From Candidatus Omnitrophota bacterium (GTDB taxonomy: Bacteria; Omnitrophota; Gorgyraeia; 2-01-FULL-45-10): a stretch of 64,000 nt of DNA. Both the position numbers and the translations under genes were made by a program. Under the pieces are notes generated by a model. That model worked only from the letters and a program-made list of their open reading frames with translations. It did not search any database and was not told where the DNA came from. Location of the stretch: assembly GCA_041648975.1 (NCBI GenBank), contig JBAZNZ010000002.1, forward strand, positions 8,222-72,221, written 5' to 3'. Positions 15,926-46,053 of the stretch are shown here, in pieces (positions within the stretch are counted from its first letter, which is position 1; each line of letters begins with the position of its first letter).

Positions 15926-18310
15926 TTATCCGCACTTTGAATAACCGCAGGACTTGCAGATCATACACCCTTCGACATGCCATAAGGCGCTTCCGCAGTC
16001 CGGACATACGCCGACTATATTACCGGTCTTGGATTTTACGGCCTGCCCGCCTGTAATCGCCCCACCGGGCAGGCGGGCCTGCCCGCCTGACATTGCCCCC
16101 TCGGGCAGGCGGGCCTTTGCCACTCCTCCGGACCCTTCGGACGCTATCTGGGCGCTATTTTGGCCTGCTTGCGGCGCCGCAGTATCGGTCTCAGGCGCCT
16201 TTTTAGCCTTCTCATCCTGCATCCTTCTCTCTATAACGCGCGCTATGGCGTCGCTGCAGGAGAATATCCTGCCGCCTTTTTCCCAGCTGGGCGACGGGCA
16301 CCTTATCCCGCGAAGCTGCTCGATGATGGAATTCGTATCTATCCCGCTCCTGAAGGCCAGAGAAACGAGCCTTCCGATAGCCTCGAGTTGGCTCATCGCG
16401 CATCCGCCGGCCTTACCCATGGAGGTAAAGAGCTCAAACGGCAGGCTCTTTTCATCTACATTTATCGTGACATAGAGATTTCCGCATCCTGTAGCTATCT
16501 TGGTCGTAGTGCCGGTTATGACATTAGGCCTTGGCCGCGGCACTATCTTCGTTTCGGAAGGCGCTTTTATATCAGGCGCAGCTGATCCGGATATATTCAA
16601 TACCTGCTCTTCCCTGGATTTATCCCTGTAAATAGTCACGCCTTTGCAGCCGGTTTCATATGCCAGCATATATATAGAGTAGACGTCCTCCGTGGTAGCT
16701 TCGGTGGGAAGATTGACTGTCTTTGATACCGCGTTATTCGTGTACTTCTGGAAAGCCGCCTGCATCTTTATATGCCAGACGGCTTCTATGTCATGAGCCG
16801 TAACAAAAAGCTTCTGGGCGTCTTCCGGCACCTGGTCGAGTCCCCTGACAGTTCCCTTTTCCGCGATAATATTCATAAGTTCCGTTGAATAGAAGGACCT
16901 CTTTTCGGCTACTTCTTCAAAATAAGGATGGACTTCCACGAATTTCGTATTGTCCAGTATGTTCCTTATGTAGGAAATAGCGAATACAGGCTCTATACCG
17001 CTGGAACAATTGGCAATGATAGATAAAGTCCCTGTCGGCGCTATAGTCGTAAGCGTTGCGTTCCTGAGCGGCCTCGCGCCCGGCACATCGTATATGCTTC
17101 CGCGGAAATTCTGGAAAGCCCCTCTCTCTGCGGCCAGGTTCCGGGAAGCGGCCTGCGAAGTCTCCAGTATGAACTTCATTATCTTTTCAGCCATCTGTGT
17201 AGCGTTCTCCGAATCGTAGCTCACCCCTAACATCAGGAGCATGTCGGCGAAACCCATTACGCCGAGGCCGATCTTACGATTCGATTTGGTCGTATCCTCT
17301 ATCCTCTTCAGGGGATAGCAGTTCATGTCTATGACATTGTCAAGGAAGTGGACAGCCTTTATTACGGTATTTCCCAGCTTTTTCCAATCTATCTCGCCGG
17401 AGGATATCATCCTGGCTAAATTTATGGATCCCAGATTGCAGCTTTCATACGGAAGAAGAGGCTGTTCCCCGCAAGGATTGGTCGATTCTATCTCACCCGC
17501 CTTCGGCGTCGGGTTATCCCTGTTGATCCTGTCTATAAAGACTATCCCCGGCTCACCGTTCTTCCATGCCATTCTTATTATCAGGTCCAGCACCTTCCTC
17601 GCGTTCAATTTCTGCACGCATTTCTTTGTGTGAGGATCGATGAGATCGTAATCTTCACCCTTTATGGCCCTCTTTATGAAATCCTCGGTGATCGCCACCG
17701 AGATATTAAAATTGGTTATCTCCTTGTCGCTCTCTTTACACGTCACGAACTCGATTATATCCGGATGATCCACCCTCAGGATGCCCATGTTGGCGCCCCT
17801 GCGCGTCCCGCCCTGCTTGACCGCCTGGGTCGCGGAATTGAAGACCTTCATAAAAGATACCGGACCGCTTGATATGCCGCCCGTTGACCGTACCGGAGAA
17901 TTTTTTGCGCGCAGCCTGGAAAAAGAAAAACCGGTGCCTCCGCCGGATTTATGTATGAGGGCCGTATCTTTGATCGTCCCGAATATCGACTCCATCGAGT
18001 CATCTATGGACAGGACAAAACAGGCCGATAACTGCTGGAGATCCCTGCCCGCGTTCATCAGCGTGGGAGAATTCGGAAGGAATTCCAGGTTAGCCATCAT
18101 ATCGAAAAATTCGCGCTCGGCGCGCGCGACCTGCTCATCCGTTTTTCCGTAGTACTTATCGGCCGTCGCTATGTTCGACGCTACCCGGTGGAACAACTCC
18201 TCGGGCGTCTCTATGACCTTACCGTCGTCATCCCTTTTCAGGTACCTCTTCTCTAATACCTTCCTGGCGCTTTCCGACAACGCCGCCTTTCCGCCGCTCT
18301 TCTCTTCCAT
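15926..18310 (-). CDS. nrdJ: Adenosylcobalamin-dependent (class II) ribonucleotide reductase
   Basis: 794 aa. RNR catalytic core present (e.g. PCGEQPLLPYESCNLGSINL). C-terminal zinc ribbon CPDCGSALWHVEGCMICKSCGYSKCG, typical of monomeric NrdJ. Confidence 0.9.
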   Translation of the reverse strand: MEEKSGGKAALSESARKVLEKRYLKRDDDGKVIETPEELFHRVASNIATADKYYGKTDEQVARAEREFFDMMANLEFLPNSPTLMNAGRDLQQLSACFVLSIDDSMESIFGTIKDTALIHKSGGGTGFSFSRLRAKNSPVRSTGGISSGPVSFMKVFNSATQAVKQGGTRRGANMGILRVDHPDIIEFVTCKESDKEITNFNISVAITEDFIKRAIKGEDYDLIDPHTKKCVQKLNARKVLDLIIRMAWKNGEPGIVFIDRINRDNPTPKAGEIESTNPCGEQPLLPYESCNLGSINLARMISSGEIDWKKLGNTVIKAVHFLDNVIDMNCYPLKRIEDTTKSNRKIGLGVMGFADMLLMLGVSYDSENATQMAEKIMKFILETSQAASRNLAAERGAFQNFRGSIYDVPGARPLRNATLTTIAPTGTLSIIANCSSGIEPVFAISYIRNILDNTKFVEVHPYFEEVAEKRSFYSTELMNIIAEKGTVRGLDQVPEDAQKLFVTAHDIEAVWHIKMQAAFQKYTNNAVSKTVNLPTEATTEDVYSIYMLAYETGCKGVTIYRDKSREEQVLNISGSAAPDIKAPSETKIVPRPRPNVITGTTTKIATGCGNLYVTINVDEKSLPFELFTSMGKAGGCAMSQLEAIGRLVSLAFRSGIDTNSIIEQLRGIRCPSPSWEKGGRIFSCSDAIARVIERRMQDEKAKKAPETDTAAPQAGQNSAQIASEGSGGVAKARLPEGAMSGGQARLPGGAITGGQAVKSKTGNIVGVCPDCGSALWHVEGCMICKSCGYSKCG

Positions 18311-42288: not shown

Positions 42289-42602
42289 CCCGCACCTTCC
42301 TTCCTTAAATTTAACGTTGTATTTTATAAAGAGATTTTTTTACAATACCTTTCCCGCACCAAAAGATATTAGAAGGTGCGGGGTTTATGTGGATGCTGCC
42401 TCCTATTTTATTCTAGCGTCAGATTTGCGTACAAATTTGATATTGAGGCAGCGCTAAGAAATGCGAACGAATAGTGAGCATTTTAGCTGCCGAAATATCT
42501 TACCCGTCACCCCCGCGCGTTGTTATAGGTCCTTCGTCGGACTACTATCTAACCGTATCCTCCTCAGGATCATTTTTTACCCGAGTTAGACTATTGTAAA
42601 AA

Positions 42603-42677
42603 ATGGAGCGGCGGATGGGTTTCGAACCCACGACATCGACCTTGGCAAGGTCGCATTCTACCACTGAATTACCGCCG
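42603..42677 (-). tRNA. tRNA-Gly (GCC)
   Basis: Reverse complement GCGGCGGTAATTCAGTGGTAGAATGCGACCTTGCCAAGGTCGATGTCGTGGGTTCGAAACCCATCCGCCGCTCCA. Cloverleaf with anticodon loop TTGCCAA. CCA is encoded. Confidence 0.9.
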
Positions 42678-42957
42678 CTTTTGCAAAGCAAAAGCGATGC
42701 TGAGCTAGCCATGAAGCGCGACGAACAGGAGCGCTTCAGGCGACGCGAAGCACCTATGCTTCGACTAAAATATAATTGCGCTAAAGTCTGACCGCTTGCC
42801 CGTGAACTGATCCTAGGTCCTTCGTTGGCCTACAGTTTGACTCCAGCCTCCTCAGGATCTTTCTCTTCATATTGTCTATAGGTATTTCAGCCGCTAAAAT
42901 CCTTCCTTTGGTCGGATTTCTTTACGCGGCTTCAATATCAAAATTGCTTCGCAATTT

Positions 42958-43033
42958 TGGTGCCCGCACCAAGAATCGAACTTGGAACCTTGACATTAAG
43001 AGTGTCCTGCTCTGCCAATTGAGCTATGCGGGC
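42958..43033 (-). tRNA. tRNA-Lys (CTT)
   Basis: Reverse complement GCCCGCATAGCTCAATTGGCAGAGCAGGACACTCTTAATGTCAAGGTTCCAAGTTCGATTCTTGGTGCGGGCACCA. Anticodon loop CTCTTAA. Confidence 0.85.
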
Positions 43034-43150
43034 AATCTCAGTCAGTTTTAGCGCAATAAATTGTTGAGCCTAAACCCGACCTTAAACTATTCATGGCGAA
43101 ATCCGCCGAAGCACCTTCTAGCTTGCGCCTTGATTGCGGAGGCGGAAGCT
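43034..43150. repeat. Partial tandem duplication of the tRNA-Lys upstream unit, ending in a copy of the first 12 nt of the tRNA
   Basis: The unit is homologous to the tRNA-Arg 120-bp repeat (ATTGTTGAGCCTAAACCCGACCTTAAACTATTCATGGCGAAATCCGCCGAAGC...). It ends GAAGCTATGCGGGCG, matching the tRNA-Lys 5' end AGCTATGCGGGC. Confidence 0.65.
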
Positions 43151-43523
43151 ATGCGGGCGTCGCGAAAACCGTCCTGCTATATCGCTCCTTAGAAGGAAAC
43201 CTAGGTTTCCTTCTAACGTCCCGCCAGGACTATAACTCTGGGCGGGACTGTTTTCCTTCCTCTAACTTTAACACCAAAAACAAAAAAAGCATGGAATAAA
43301 ATTCGCTATATCTAAAAATCCCTAGTTGCTTAGAGCGATAATTATATCAAAATCATAAATTAAATGCAATAAATTCTATTAGATATGGCAAAATACGTAA
43401 TTTAGCCAATTTTATTCTGACTATTTCATTCCACTCGAGCTGATATAGGTCCTTCGTCGAACCGCAGTCTAACTCAATCCTCCTCAGGATCAAATTTTAC
43501 CTGAGTGAGACTGCAGTAAAATT

Positions 43524-43608
43524 TGGTGCGGGCGAAGGGATTTGAACCCCCAAGCCTTGCGGCATACGGTCCTAAGCCGTACACGTCTGCCAATTCCGTC
43601 ACGCCCGC
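43524..43608 (-). tRNA. tRNA-Leu (TAG), long variable arm
   Basis: Reverse complement GCGGGCGTGACGGAATTGGCAGACGTGTACGGCTTAGGACCGTATGCCGCAAGGCTTGGGGGTTCAAATCCCTTCGCCCGCACCA. Anticodon loop CTTAGGA. Confidence 0.85.
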
Positions 43609-43929
43609 GTAAGTCCACTTAAGTCACATCGTCAGAGTTTAGGTATTTTGTGCATTGCGCTGTTGTATTCGCTTTGCGCAAGGCCAATTCCGCCACTTCT
43701 ATCTGACTGGATATCTCTTGCACTTCCAGCCTAAGTGACGGGCCACGTCCGCTGAAATTTATGTATAAATTTCATCCCGAGGCTGCGACAAATCGGAGCA
43801 GCCGAGGGAATACATCTTAAGTCAAATCGTCAAAGTATATTACAGTTTTTTATCTGTAGCCCCTCGCAGCTTGACTAAAATACATGCTGCTCGGGACAAA
43901 TTTCGCCTGAGTTAGGCTGCGGCAAAATT

Positions 43930-44006
43930 TGGCGCGCCCGGGGTGAATCGAACACCCAGCCTACTGGTTCGAAGCCAGCCACTCTATCCAATTGAGCTAC
44001 GGGCGC
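43930..44006 (-). tRNA. tRNA-Arg (TCG)
   Basis: Reverse complement GCGCCCGTAGCTCAATTGGATAGAGTGGCTGGCTTCGAACCAGTAGGCTGGGTGTTCGATTCACCCCGGGCGCGCCA. Anticodon loop CTTCGAA. Confidence 0.85.
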
Positions 44007-44246
44007 TTTTACTCAAATAAGCACAAAAATTGTTGAGCCTAAACCCGACCCTAAACTATTCATGGCGAAATCCGCCGAAGCTTCAACCGGTATCGCTGAT
44101 TCAGCGAAGGCGGAAGCTACGGGCGCTTTTACTCAAATAAGCGCAAAAATTGTTGAGCCTAAACCCGACCCTAAACTATTCATGGCGAAATCCGCCGAAG
44201 CTTCAACCGGTATCGCTGATTCAGCGAAGGCGGAAGCTGCGGGCGC
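44007..44246. repeat. Two tandem 120-bp copies of the tRNA-Arg upstream region, each ending with the first 12 nt of tRNA-Arg
   Basis: Period measured from AAACCCGACC at 44041 and again at 44161. Both units end GGCGGAAGCTACGGGCGC (unit 2 reads GCTGCGGGCGC). The tRNA 5' end is AGCTACGGGCGC. Confidence 0.8.
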
Positions 44247-44394
44247 TCTTTAAAAGGTCCGCCTCTTTCAACCTGCCGCCGCGCAGGCCGCTATTCGCGG
44301 CATTTACGATCGCCTCCACATCCTCATTCGTTATGTCGCCCTGTTTTATCGTAATCATCCGGCAAAAGGCGCCTTACGCCTGATATTCTACTCT

Positions 44395-46053
44395 CTATTC
44401 GATCGATATATTCTCTTCGACCTTAAAATTATCCTGGAAAGTGAAGTCGCCGGACAGCTCCGGCAGTTTAAATTGCGTATCATGGGCGCCTTCACTTATC
44501 TTCTTCGCGCGATATCGTTCGAACTCCCCGCTTTTTACGACCTTCAAAAGCGGGGACCCCAGGAGTTGCGCCTGCCGTATCCAGCTGTATTCGCAATTCT
44601 GGCGGCAAAGTTCTTCTTCTATGGACTTTAGAAATCCTTTTTTCTCTTCAAGAGTGGGCACGCCGTCAAATTCCACTAAAAATATATAACGCGGCGGGTG
44701 GTCCCATTGGACGGAAGCGGAGAAGAGCTCCACTATCATCTTGTGAGCGTCGAGGGCTTTATTCACCGCCTCGTTCACCTGCGATTCGTATACCTTCTCT
44801 CCCGTAAGCGAAACGGCGTTAAGGCCTTTCTGCACGAATTCTATGACCGGCGTCTTGTTGAAAAAACCGTCGACGACAATAACGTCGTCTATGTTATAGC
44901 GGTATAACCCTCCGGGGGTGGTGACGACCAGCAAATATTCTCTGCCCTTTTCCAGTTCGTCGCAAAGAAAGACGCGCTTGTCCTTCTTTGACATATCTTC
45001 CCTGGGTATAAATTCATAAAAATTCGCGTTTATGGCAAGGACGCCTCCTGCCCCTTCATCGCTCATCGGTATGGAACTACGGGCTTCCGTGGAAAGGCAG
45101 CCGAAATCCCTTATAGGGACGTCCCCAAAATACTGAGGCAGCTCCTTAAGGTATATCTTGACCGTCCCGCCTTTCCAGCACTCTATGAGCTCCAGGCCCG
45201 GCCAGAAATATTTCGGCAATAGGGCCCCTCTCTCCTTCAGAATATCTTTCAGGACCGCTGCGCGCGCCGGGTTCGGCCTGAACGCCGCTTCTATCTCACG
45301 TCTTATATTCTCGGAAATATCGAATTCTTTATTTAAAGAACCGCGTTCGATATCGTCTATTATCTTATCTTTCCATATCTCTATTTTTTTGCACAGTAAT
45401 ACTAATGTGCTCGGGTTCAACGTTGCTACAGTCGTTATATTCTGCTCTATGCCGATCCTGAGTATGCAGTAATATCTCGCGTCGTAATCTTTTATCTCAA
45501 AAACCTGGTGCGGCAACGCGTAGAGGCTCTTAACGGCGATTGGCAGGTTCCTGTAACCGAACCCGCTCTCTGCTCCGTAAGGCAGCCCCGATCCCGTATA
45601 TCCTTCTATCTCGGGGCTTATGACGGCCAGCACCTTGCCGTCCAGGACGCGCGGATGATCCCTTGAGATATAATATGACCACAGGGTCGAAACCTCGGCC
45701 TTCTTCTCCCGCGAATAGCCGGTCACGGGGATAAGCTTTTTGCGGCTGGTAGTGCCGCTGGTGGCGCCGAAGAATATCGGCTTATCCACGGTCAGGACAC
45801 GATCCTCCCCTTTCTCCATCTTTTCAAGGTAAGGAAGAAAGGTCTCGAAGTCGTTCACGGGAACCGTATTCTGGTAATCCGCAATGGATCTTATACTGGA
45901 AAAGTCGTAACGCCGTCCATATTCTGTGTTACGGTTGCGCTTGAGGAACTCCAGAAGAATTTTTTTCTGGGCGCGCACAGGGTCTTTTGTAGACCGTTCA
46001 AACGCCATTGCCTTGAACGCCAATAGTTTGACAGCAAGATACGCTATATTCAA
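44395..46053 (-). CDS. GH3-family protein (auxin-responsive-GH3-like acyl-acid amido synthetase; adenylate-forming superfamily)
   Basis: 552 aa. N-terminal adenylation motif FGATSGTTSRKKLIPV. Overall GH3 layout (YGAESGF, C-terminal domain). Confidence 0.7.
   Translation of the reverse strand: MNIAYLAVKLLAFKAMAFERSTKDPVRAQKKILLEFLKRNRNTEYGRRYDFSSIRSIADYQNTVPVNDFETFLPYLEKMEKGEDRVLTVDKPIFFGATSGTTSRKKLIPVTGYSREKKAEVSTLWSYYISRDHPRVLDGKVLAVISPEIEGYTGSGLPYGAESGFGYRNLPIAVKSLYALPHQVFEIKDYDARYYCILRIGIEQNITTVATLNPSTLVLLCKKIEIWKDKIIDDIERGSLNKEFDISENIRREIEAAFRPNPARAAVLKDILKERGALLPKYFWPGLELIECWKGGTVKIYLKELPQYFGDVPIRDFGCLSTEARSSIPMSDEGAGGVLAINANFYEFIPREDMSKKDKRVFLCDELEKGREYLLVVTTPGGLYRYNIDDVIVVDGFFNKTPVIEFVQKGLNAVSLTGEKVYESQVNEAVNKALDAHKMIVELFSASVQWDHPPRYIFLVEFDGVPTLEEKKGFLKSIEEELCRQNCEYSWIRQAQLLGSPLLKVVKSGEFERYRAKKISEGAHDTQFKLPELSGDFTFQDNFKVEENISIE

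Follow-up and report, generated by a model that had tools for sequence, protein, structure and literature searches.

The 64,000-nucleotide stretch of Candidatus Omnitrophota DNA analysed here (contig JBAZNZ010000002.1, positions 8,222 to 72,221; hereafter ‘the window’) contains, on its minus strand, a tRNA-Arg gene (anticodon TCG; 43930–44006) that is preceded by two tandem units of 120 bp. Read in the sense of the tRNA, each unit consists of a copy of tRNA nucleotides 1–12 (the ‘stub’) followed by a segment of ~108 nt, which we call element E, and the intact tRNA follows. The locus is therefore ordered distal stub, E, stub, E, tRNA-Arg. Tandem Repeats Finder (TRF) assigns a period of 120 bp and 2.1 copies to positions 43995–44252, with 97% matches and no indels, and a repeat search of the window aligns 43995–44114 with 44115–44234 at 99% identity. 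A first-pass annotation of this DNA had described a 120-bp repeat with two extra copies, a description that our analysis bears out: the extra units (44007–44126 and 44127–44246) differ at 2 of 120 positions, 44023/44143 (A/G) and 44119/44239 (A/G). The same element occurs at other tRNA genes, each time beside a copy of the first 12 nucleotides of that gene, and we interpret it below as a candidate insertion element specific for tRNA genes.

Nucleotides 1–12 of tRNA-Arg read AGCTACGGGCGC on the plus strand (43995–44006). This 12-mer recurs exactly at 44115–44126, between the two E units, where it is 12/12 identical in the tRNA sense (GCGCCCGTAGCT). A second recurrence, at the left end of the array (44235–44246), carries one mismatch (AGCTGCGGGCGC on the plus strand; GCGCCCGCAGCT in the tRNA sense), so the first-pass statement that each extra copy ends in the tRNA 12-mer is exact for one of the two. 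The proximal E unit (44007–44114, minus strand, 108 nt) belongs to repeat families D1 and D2 and is matched by an nhmmer profile of E with E = 3.8e-29. It comprises a head hairpin (TCCGCC...GGCGGA; 44071–44114), a core located within 44027–44081, and an A/T-rich tail (~44007–44029). The distal E unit (44127–44234, minus strand, 108 nt; head hairpin 44191–44234) was identified by TRF, the repeat search and nhmmer and differs from the proximal unit at one position (G at 44143 versus A at 44023). The tRNA-Arg gene downstream is predicted by ARAGORN and scores 67.4 bits against the Rfam tRNA model, consistent with a target that was re-formed intact.

The copy number at tRNA-Arg rests on short-read assemblies that may share reads. 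An assembly with k = 141 spans both units without ambiguity, and the ENA contig L003 (we refer to compared sequences by L numbers) contains the same two-unit array with no mismatch within it, on sequence that may derive from the same reads as the window assembly. Two short-read contigs, L001 and L002, break near or within the array. L001 and L003, from the ENA assembly, overlap by exactly 141 nt, the assembly k, at window positions 44275–44415 just upstream of the array; this overlap indicates a branch in the assembly graph and possibly strain variation beside the array.

A complete E unit of 113 nt (43034–43146, minus strand; repeat family D2; nhmmer E = 7.2e-28) lies directly upstream of an intact tRNA-Lys gene (anticodon CTT; 42958–43033, minus strand; ARAGORN; Rfam 66.5 bits). 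Its core spans 43058–43112 and its head hairpin 43102–43146, and it is flanked by a 12/12 identical copy of tRNA-Lys nucleotides 1–12 (43147–43158, minus strand; GCCCGCATAGCT in the tRNA sense and AGCTATGCGGGC on the plus strand). The first-pass annotation had recognized this unit and had called it partial, with an end at 43150. The unit is real and complete, running from 43034 to 43158, and the proposed end cuts through the 12-mer.

Across the window copies, E is 108–113 nt long and is composed of three parts. The head, with the sequence TCCGCC(T/C)TCGC ... GCTTCGGCGGA, forms an imperfect hairpin beside the stub, with an invariant 6-bp stem and a loop of 22–25 nt that varies between copies; because the stem is invariant, it offers no covariation evidence. 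The core reads TTTCGCCAT(G/A)A.TAGT....GTCGGG.TTAGGCTCAA, and its Arg and Lys versions have 98% identity. The A/T-rich tail (22–30 nt) abuts tRNA position +1 and is poorly conserved at its end. A box that reads TAAAAY or TGGTAGAAT lies 8–13 nt before +1 in the Gly and Lys copies. Short open reading frames (ORFs) occur on both strands and none is kept between copies. E has no match in Rfam 15, for which only the four tRNAs reach the gathering threshold in the window, and a permissive Rfam search of positions 42300–44450 returned chance-level matches only, as it did in relatives. No further copy of E is present in the rest of the window.

The same architecture is observed at five positions: tRNA-Arg (with two units) and tRNA-Lys in the window, tRNA-Gly-CCC in L008 and L065, and tRNA-Met in L072. 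The L065 and L072 copies came from a scan of JGI metagenomes with another conserved block of E, and the L065 copy is orthologous to that in L008. The same scan picked up E-like heads, without a tRNA, in L033 and L051. At all five positions the junction between nucleotide 12 and TCCGCC, the orientation and the 12-nt length of the repeat are constant, while the 12-mer itself is that of the local tRNA. The 12 nucleotides before TCCGCC in L008 are GCGAGCGTAATT, identical to tRNA-Gly-CCC nucleotides 1–12, and the stub at tRNA-Met in L072 is GGCGGGGTAGCT. A probable sixth case is tRNA-Ser in L051, where an 11/12 stub is followed by an E-like head with an 80-nt loop that contains no ORF, and by a different body. 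L008 and L065 are assigned to Omnitrophota; L072, L051 and L033 (see below) are metagenome contigs with no assigned taxon. The earlier suggestion that the junction tracks the adjacent gene is thus well founded, with a fixed point at nucleotides 12/13 and a local 12-mer at Arg, Lys, Gly-CCC, Met and probably Ser.

Among the 30 tRNA calls in all DNA fetched for this work, several of which are repeats of one gene in overlapping contigs, an upstream copy of tRNA nucleotides 1–12 was confined to sites that have E or an E-like head. The chance expectation of such a copy, with at most one mismatch within 400 nt upstream, is ~9e-4 per tRNA. The stub is 12/12 identical in both L008 and L065 despite diverged flanks. 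The E core is ~92% identical between these two sequences, compared with only 77.5% for the neighbouring PfkB coding DNA; this degree of conservation suggests that the core is under constraint.

Orthologous sites that contain no E define the boundaries of the element. In the conserved locus PfkB–tRNA-Gly-CCC–LysM/M23, E is present in L008 and L065 and absent from L134, L137 and L139, where the tRNA begins 9–13 nt past the PfkB stop codon. L065 reads ...TAG ATGAGCAATAAGT, then the stub GCGAGCGTAATT, E and the tRNA, whereas its counterpart in L134 reads ...TAA ATGAGCGATCGGC and continues directly into the tRNA. PfkB nucleotide identity places L137 and L139 (~68%) as outgroups to L008, L065, L134 and L136 (77–81%), and because both outgroups are empty, the ancestral state of this site was empty. 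L136 retains only the tRNA-proximal third of E (TAGGCTCAACAATGGTAGGAT...), having lost the stub and the hairpin.

The Lys and Arg sites, occupied in the window, are empty in L145, a relative (YvcK 84% identical) with the same set of Arg, Leu, Lys and Gly tRNAs upstream of PtsN. The sequence directly upstream of tRNA-Lys in L145 has its orthologue upstream of the Lys stub in the window. This sequence, module P (43159–43290, minus strand), contains two hairpins (palindrome I5); it runs straight into tRNA +1 in L145 and ends at the Lys stub in the window, and the alignment with L145 identifies it as the displaced native upstream module of tRNA-Lys. Together, the empty orthologous loci indicate a discrete indel, made up of E and one 12-mer, at no fewer than two independent loci. 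They place the insertion or deletion exactly at the point within the tRNA 5′ end at which the first-pass annotation had suspected recombination. A MAFFT alignment hinted that E might be a diverged module P; we rejected this idea because the two score no higher in local alignment than shuffled sequence does on average. An attempt to reach an orthologous Arg site through GH3 synteny also failed, since the GH3 homologues (66–69% identity) lack a conserved neighbourhood and led to no orthologous Arg site.

These comparisons bear on the simplest account of the tRNA-Arg array, in which the native promoter region of this gene was multiplied locally by slippage or unequal crossing-over, or in which the assembly expanded a repeat artificially. 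The exact period, the 118/120 identity of the units and the presence of 12-bp direct repeats that favour unequal exchange are all as such an account predicts, and the contig breaks in L001 and L002 could reflect an assembly problem. However, at other loci and in other genomes the Lys, Gly-CCC and Met tRNAs each have a single unit that orthologous sites lack, and E has no detectable similarity to the native module P. The two sequence differences between the units, and the k = 141 assembly that crosses both, argue against an artefact. We therefore regard a purely local or artefactual origin as very improbable. Slippage, which the first-pass annotation had offered as an alternative, can explain the second Arg unit, as can unequal exchange, but neither accounts for the single units found at four other tRNAs in other genomes.

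The reading that we prefer, and to which we assign about an even chance of being correct, is that E inserts, or until recently inserted, into tRNA genes of Omnitrophota as a non-autonomous element specific for these genes, with a flanking repeat copied from the target. In this scheme E would enter a tRNA gene between nucleotides 12 and 13, in the 5′ strand of the D stem, and in a single orientation. Target nucleotides 1–12 would end up on both sides of E, so that an intact tRNA is re-formed directly downstream, and the old upstream region together with the 12-nt stub would be displaced by ~120 bp. The stub sequence is in every case that of the local tRNA, which is best explained by a duplication made from the target at insertion; a repeat of constant length (12) and target-dependent sequence is the pattern expected of such a duplication. 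The duplicating step might involve staggered cutting and fill-in, or some other way of copying the target, with no att core carried from site to site. It would presumably be performed by an enzyme encoded elsewhere and acting in trans. Since insertion regenerates its own target, a second unit can arise. At tRNA-Arg this may have occurred by a second insertion or by unequal exchange between the 12-bp repeats, both of which predict the observed structure. The second Arg unit derives from the first and not from the Lys copy, because both Arg units have the Arg-specific loop and tail (118/120).

The position of E also suggests what it may contribute to the genes that it precedes. At the empty sites tRNA-Gly-CCC must be co-transcribed with PfkB, because it begins 9–13 nt behind the stop codon. 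E places a GC-rich hairpin, and then the TGGTAGAAT or TAAAAY boxes, before the tRNA, and L136 has kept the part with the boxes. On these grounds E probably shields the tRNA against transcription from upstream and gives it a new promoter, and the L136 remnant is consistent with the tRNA-proximal part being the useful, promoter-like one.

Relatives of the window strain contain a second family, F, that forms a mirror image of E at tRNA 3′ ends. Its members are organized as an intact tRNA, a variable tail, a core that ends in a hairpin (...GGCTACGCAGGCGAGC.C.GCGAGCCGAAGTAGC), a 21-nt copy of tRNA nucleotides C56–A76, and the native trailer. Such elements lie behind tRNA-Lys in L004 (160–321), a ~97% identical sister strain of the window, at the tRNA gene that also has E; behind tRNA-Gly-GCC in L142 (269–409) and in L141; and, with a different core, behind tRNA-Tyr in L072 (9797–9962), the contig that has E at tRNA-Met. 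The window has no 3′ element at its own Lys and Gly-GCC genes. The 21-nt repeat is that of whichever tRNA precedes it, and the Lys and Gly-GCC cores are ~90% identical. The partial tRNA copy adjoins the conserved end with the hairpin in both families, and the intact tRNA adjoins the variable end. The repeat in each is of constant length and reaches the tRNA terminus exactly (nucleotide 1 for E and nucleotide 76 for the 3′ family), while the inner junctions lie at 12/13, within the D arm, for E and at 55/56, within the T loop, for the 3′ family. We considered whether the left part of the 3′ element also tracks the local T arm, and rejected this because both copies resemble a Gly-GCC-like T arm.

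Several observations weigh against the insertion-element reading. Neither the Pfam search of the ORFs tested nor the precomputed Pfam hits revealed a transposase, integrase, reverse transcriptase or Cas1 encoded in the 64-kb window. The repeat search found no terminal inverted repeats joining the ends of the unit, and only the stub-side end is conserved. The Lys and Arg copies differ in the hairpin loop and in the last ~16 nt of the tail; because the core is common to both and these parts are not, the copies are mosaics and not simple recent copies. The E hairpins are only modestly more stable than shuffled sequence (z-scores of -1.1 to -3.8). Consensus scans call neither a sigma-70 promoter nor a canonical terminator inside E, and for this reason we can only infer its promoter role. 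In the Gly-CCC copies (L008 1761–1773, the same position in L065, and L136 3917–3929), the 13 nt after ...GGCTCAA are CAATGGTAGAATA, which equals tRNA-Gly nucleotides 13–25. This match does not fit a simple 12-bp target duplication, nor does a plain staggered cut predict a duplication that ends exactly at the tRNA terminus in both families. The known distribution is also narrow. An exact 18-mer scan of 185,579 species genomes returned E in a single other genome, the Omnitrophota metagenome-assembled genome L008, upstream of tRNA-Gly-CCC, and ~5 independent insertions are known from exact-word scans, which miss diverged copies.

The match to tRNA nucleotides 13–25 after the core is graded: 13/13 for Gly, 8/13 for Met and Lys, and 6/13 for Arg. 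An E core placed inside a longer tRNA 5′ fragment (nucleotides 1–25) is thus clear for the Gly copies only, weak for Met and Lys and absent for Arg, and it complicates the picture. Together, the one-sided conservation, the mosaic copies, this match and the exact termini keep three further explanations alive.

In the first of these, E is an att-type miniature element, comparable with a cis-mobilizable element (CIME): the fused arms of a tRNA-integrating element, on which an integrase from elsewhere acts by recombining within nucleotides 1–12. Such an element would carry 12 nt of tRNA and a promoter, and tandem units would form by accretion. The direct repeat does represent a terminal tRNA segment up to the exact terminus, as in the classical tRNA-integrating elements that a 2002 survey by Williams is said to describe. 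Re-formation of an intact gene and the fixed orientation also fit, and repeated integration would be expected to yield arrays. The junction of the 3′ family in the T loop (55/56), with a 21-nt repeat that extends to the CCA end, is moreover a canonical integrase sublocation. An element-borne att core would, however, tie a lineage to one tRNA, the opposite of the pattern observed. Within one genome, cores that are 98% identical stand beside distinct, tRNA-specific 12-mers at Arg and Lys, four or five tRNAs are involved overall, and the 3′ family is equally promiscuous (Lys and Gly-GCC). No integrase is encoded in the window or beside any copy, and a 120-bp double-stranded circle would be a poor substrate for recombination. 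The D-arm position is, to our knowledge, not among the sublocations used by integrases. The classical att core put forward in the first-pass annotation is thus a poor fit, and we judge an att-type origin improbable.

A second explanation treats E as a host regulatory cassette, a terminator-plus-promoter leader that spread among tRNA loci by recombination, with the stub kept for a role at the RNA level (for instance by offering read-through transcripts a decoy 5′ acceptor strand, or by forming the beginning of a short RNA). Other modules with borders at tRNA ends do occur at these loci. The copies of module P that abut tRNA-Arg and tRNA-Lys in L145 (1500–1687 and 3690–3873) are ~95% identical. 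Downstream of several tRNAs lies element D5, GATCCTGAGGAGG...CGAAGGACCTA (42526–42574, 42814–42862 and 43446–43494), and a trailer hairpin with a conserved loop, D4 (42571–42632, 43491–43552 and 43897–43958), directly follows the CCA of several tRNAs; both were found by the repeat search. It appears that tRNA flanks in this lineage are built from common modules. The conservation of the E core relative to PfkB and the 12/12 stubs of L008 and L065 would also suit a functional cassette. In three of four cases, the read-through precursor is predicted, at minimum energy, to fold so that the stub pairs with the 3′ acceptor strand of the tRNA; such pairing is expected of any duplicated strand and gives no evidence of function. 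The distal Arg stub is already mismatched, L136 lost its stub and hairpin while keeping the tRNA-proximal part, and most tRNAs in the same genomes have no E. A cassette spread by recombination also offers no mechanism for an exact, tRNA-matching 12-nt stub at each new locus. Overall, we think it improbable that E is simply a shared leader of this kind.

The third explanation is RNA-mediated duplication: a reverse transcriptase, or RNA-templated repair, would use a mature or processed tRNA, or a leader fragment freed by RNase P, as its template or primer, and the ends of the tRNA would set the borders. This would account for duplicated segments that reach the mature tRNA end exactly in both families. 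The combination of a single conserved end with a variable, A-rich tail opposite resembles the outcome of target-primed reverse transcription, and RNase P, acting on a transcript begun at the stub, would free a fragment equal to the 120-nt unit. Against it, no reverse transcriptase is encoded in the window, and the tails are fairly constant in length, not ragged. The CCA is gene-encoded, so gene ends and RNA ends are indistinguishable. We know of no bacterial precedent for duplication of this type and consider it distinctly improbable.

A broader version of the insertion-element reading, which we put forward as speculative and on balance unlikely, is that E and its 3′ mirror image together represent a new class of bacterial mobile element. 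Their machinery would read tRNA genes via the conserved D arm and T loop, or via the tRNA itself, and would copy the target to its mature terminus (12 nt to nucleotide 1, or 21 nt to nucleotide 76), perhaps by an RNA-templated route or by widely staggered, Cas1-like attack. If this were true, essential tRNA genes would be reusable, safe landing sites at which promoters and terminators are swapped.

No longer relative of E with a transposase was found among the matches listed by the exact-word scans of genomes and metagenomes. Comparison of the E and F blocks with viral contigs gave nothing, or chance matches inside coding regions (L130 and L146), and BLAST of the unit against annotated plasmids and phages gave no match. 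A GC-rich soil contig, L033, contains on its reverse strand (1–290) two tandem E-like units of 140 nt (TTCCGCCTGCGCC...CTTCGGCGGATTTCGCCAG...GGCTCAACAA), which are bounded by GTCGTCCCGACCA repeats and have no tRNA nearby. The 18-mer CTTCGGCGGATTTCGCCA was tried as a marker of a wider family and rejected, because ~89 of its 122 metagenome matches belong to an unrelated, abundant repeat that has only ~20 nt in common with E. This repeat of ~200 nt, found at ~89 loci in L011–L129 from sediment and soil metagenomes, shares with E only TGCTTCGGCGGATTTCGCCA. At its end are a GGAGG...ATGGAGG motif and the hairpin CCACGGGC...GCCCGTGG, and it has no Rfam match. Examples are located in L024 (1480–1700 and 2260–2480) and in L107 (4841 on the minus strand and 12531 on the plus strand).

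The left flank of the tRNA-Arg array is rearranged and lacks a clean native leader, because the distal stub abuts the remnant of a macro-domain gene (44247–44358, minus strand; identified from the ORF list and by phmmer against the PDB). The remnant consists of ~28 N-terminal residues and a short internal piece, with an apparent internal deletion. Residues 2–29 match the N-termini of macro-domain proteins (PDB phmmer, E = 6e-5 and 6e-4), and the C-terminal part of the gene is absent anywhere in the window. The macro-domain reading frame runs into the distal 12-mer, which places a rearrangement breakpoint at, or within a few nucleotides of, the left end of the array.

The tRNA cluster also includes tRNA-Gly-GCC (42604–42678) and tRNA-Leu-TAG (43524–43608), both on the minus strand and both supported by ARAGORN and Rfam. 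A 13/14 copy (GTGGCGGAATTGGC) of tRNA-Leu nucleotides 7–20 (43589–43602) lies at 43683–43696, 94 nt upstream of tRNA-Leu. Its register is unlike that of the E stubs and no E is present there; it could be due to chance (roughly p = 0.005 per tRNA) or could be the scar of another event. In L145 a gene for a 23S rRNA intervening-sequence protein domain (PF05635; 3950–4404), which the window lacks, is located between tRNA-Lys and tRNA-Gly-GCC and is bracketed by short repeats of the TAGCGTATAGCG type; this insertion is another sign that the tRNA cluster is an insertion hotspot. The rest of the window consists of ordinary chromosomal genes, with PtsN, YvcK, HPr and PtsI on one side of the cluster and GH3 and ABC transporters on the other, and Pfam matches for the window ORFs are confined to housekeeping genes. 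The GH3 protein has 100% identity to a protein of a Candidatus Omnitrophota metagenome-assembled genome. A GC-rich palindromic unit of 36 nt (GGCCTGCCCGCCTGAAATCGCCCCACCGGGCAGGCG) is repeated 2.1 times at 16040–16116, at the 3′ end of a ribonucleotide reductase ORF, and looks REP-like.

The observation at the tRNA-Arg tract is therefore real, and its earlier interpretation is partly supported. Full-text literature searches returned no account of such an element, and E is best described as a previously undescribed, tRNA-5′-specific miniature insertion element with a 3′ counterpart in relatives. For practical purposes, E units break short-read assemblies at tRNA loci and may be mis-annotated as tRNA fragments or pseudogenes. 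If the proposed origin is correct, E would provide a route for exchanging tRNA promoters and terminators in a poorly known phylum, and the enzyme responsible could prove to be a transposase or recombinase whose target is compact, conserved and programmable-looking.

Among known systems, small bacterial repeats such as MITEs (miniature transposable elements with inverted repeats) and the Correia/NEMIS, RUP, ERIC and REP/BIME sequences resemble E in being ~100–150 bp long, non-coding and non-autonomous, with target duplication. They occur in several copies per genome and can carry promoter or terminator activity. E shares with MITEs a duplication of constant length and variable sequence, longer than usual at 12 bp, and presence/absence polymorphism at orthologous sites. 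In contrast to E, MITEs have terminal inverted repeats and target duplications of 2–9 bp and do not select a tRNA target or an orientation; the tRNA-side ends of E are not conserved between copies and form no such inverted repeats. Casposon and CRISPR spacer integration provide a parallel for a long target duplication. Casposons generate duplications of 14–15 bp by widely staggered attacks, CRISPR integration duplicates a whole repeat, and some casposons insert at the 3′ end of tRNA genes. Casposons are, however, large and have terminal inverted repeats, Cas1 and a polymerase, whereas E lies at the 5′ end in a window that encodes no Cas1.

Other systems resemble E in their association with tRNA genes. 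The yeast retrotransposon Ty3 and the Dictyostelium TRE elements also take a fixed position relative to tRNA genes, a ‘safe haven’, but they are eukaryotic autonomous retrotransposons that are targeted through Pol III factors and insert outside the coding region. Egan and Landy reportedly found in 1978 that tyrT of Escherichia coli is followed by 178-bp repeats (3.14 copies), each with the last 19 nt of tRNA-Tyr. Like the Arg array, these are tandem units beside a tRNA, each with a terminal fragment of that tRNA; unlike E, they are found at a single locus and on the 3′ side, with a unit not evidenced at other tRNAs, and are thus nearer to the 3′ family. The E unit itself occurs at other tRNAs and in other genomes and has no detectable similarity to the native upstream module, which distinguishes it from a slippage product.

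A further close comparison is with phages, integrative and conjugative elements and genomic islands that integrate into tRNA genes at tyrosine-integrase att sites, and with their non-autonomous remnants, CIMEs. These share with E a tRNA target, repeats of a terminal tRNA segment, a rebuilt tRNA (66–67 bits in Rfam for the E targets), a fixed orientation and the possibility of tandem accretion. They differ in recombining at the anticodon loop, the T loop or the 3′ end, in bringing their own tRNA segment and thus using one tRNA per lineage, and in being kilobases long with an integrase. E, in contrast, lies at nucleotides 12/13 on the 5′ side, is ~108 bp long, contains no gene and combines the same core with four or five tRNA-specific repeats. 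As far as we found, the bacterial tRNA insertions described to date use the 3′ half of the gene and bring their own tRNA segment, whereas E uses the 5′ D arm and apparently copies its target. If target copying is correct, E would represent a different way of using an essential gene as a harmless landing site.

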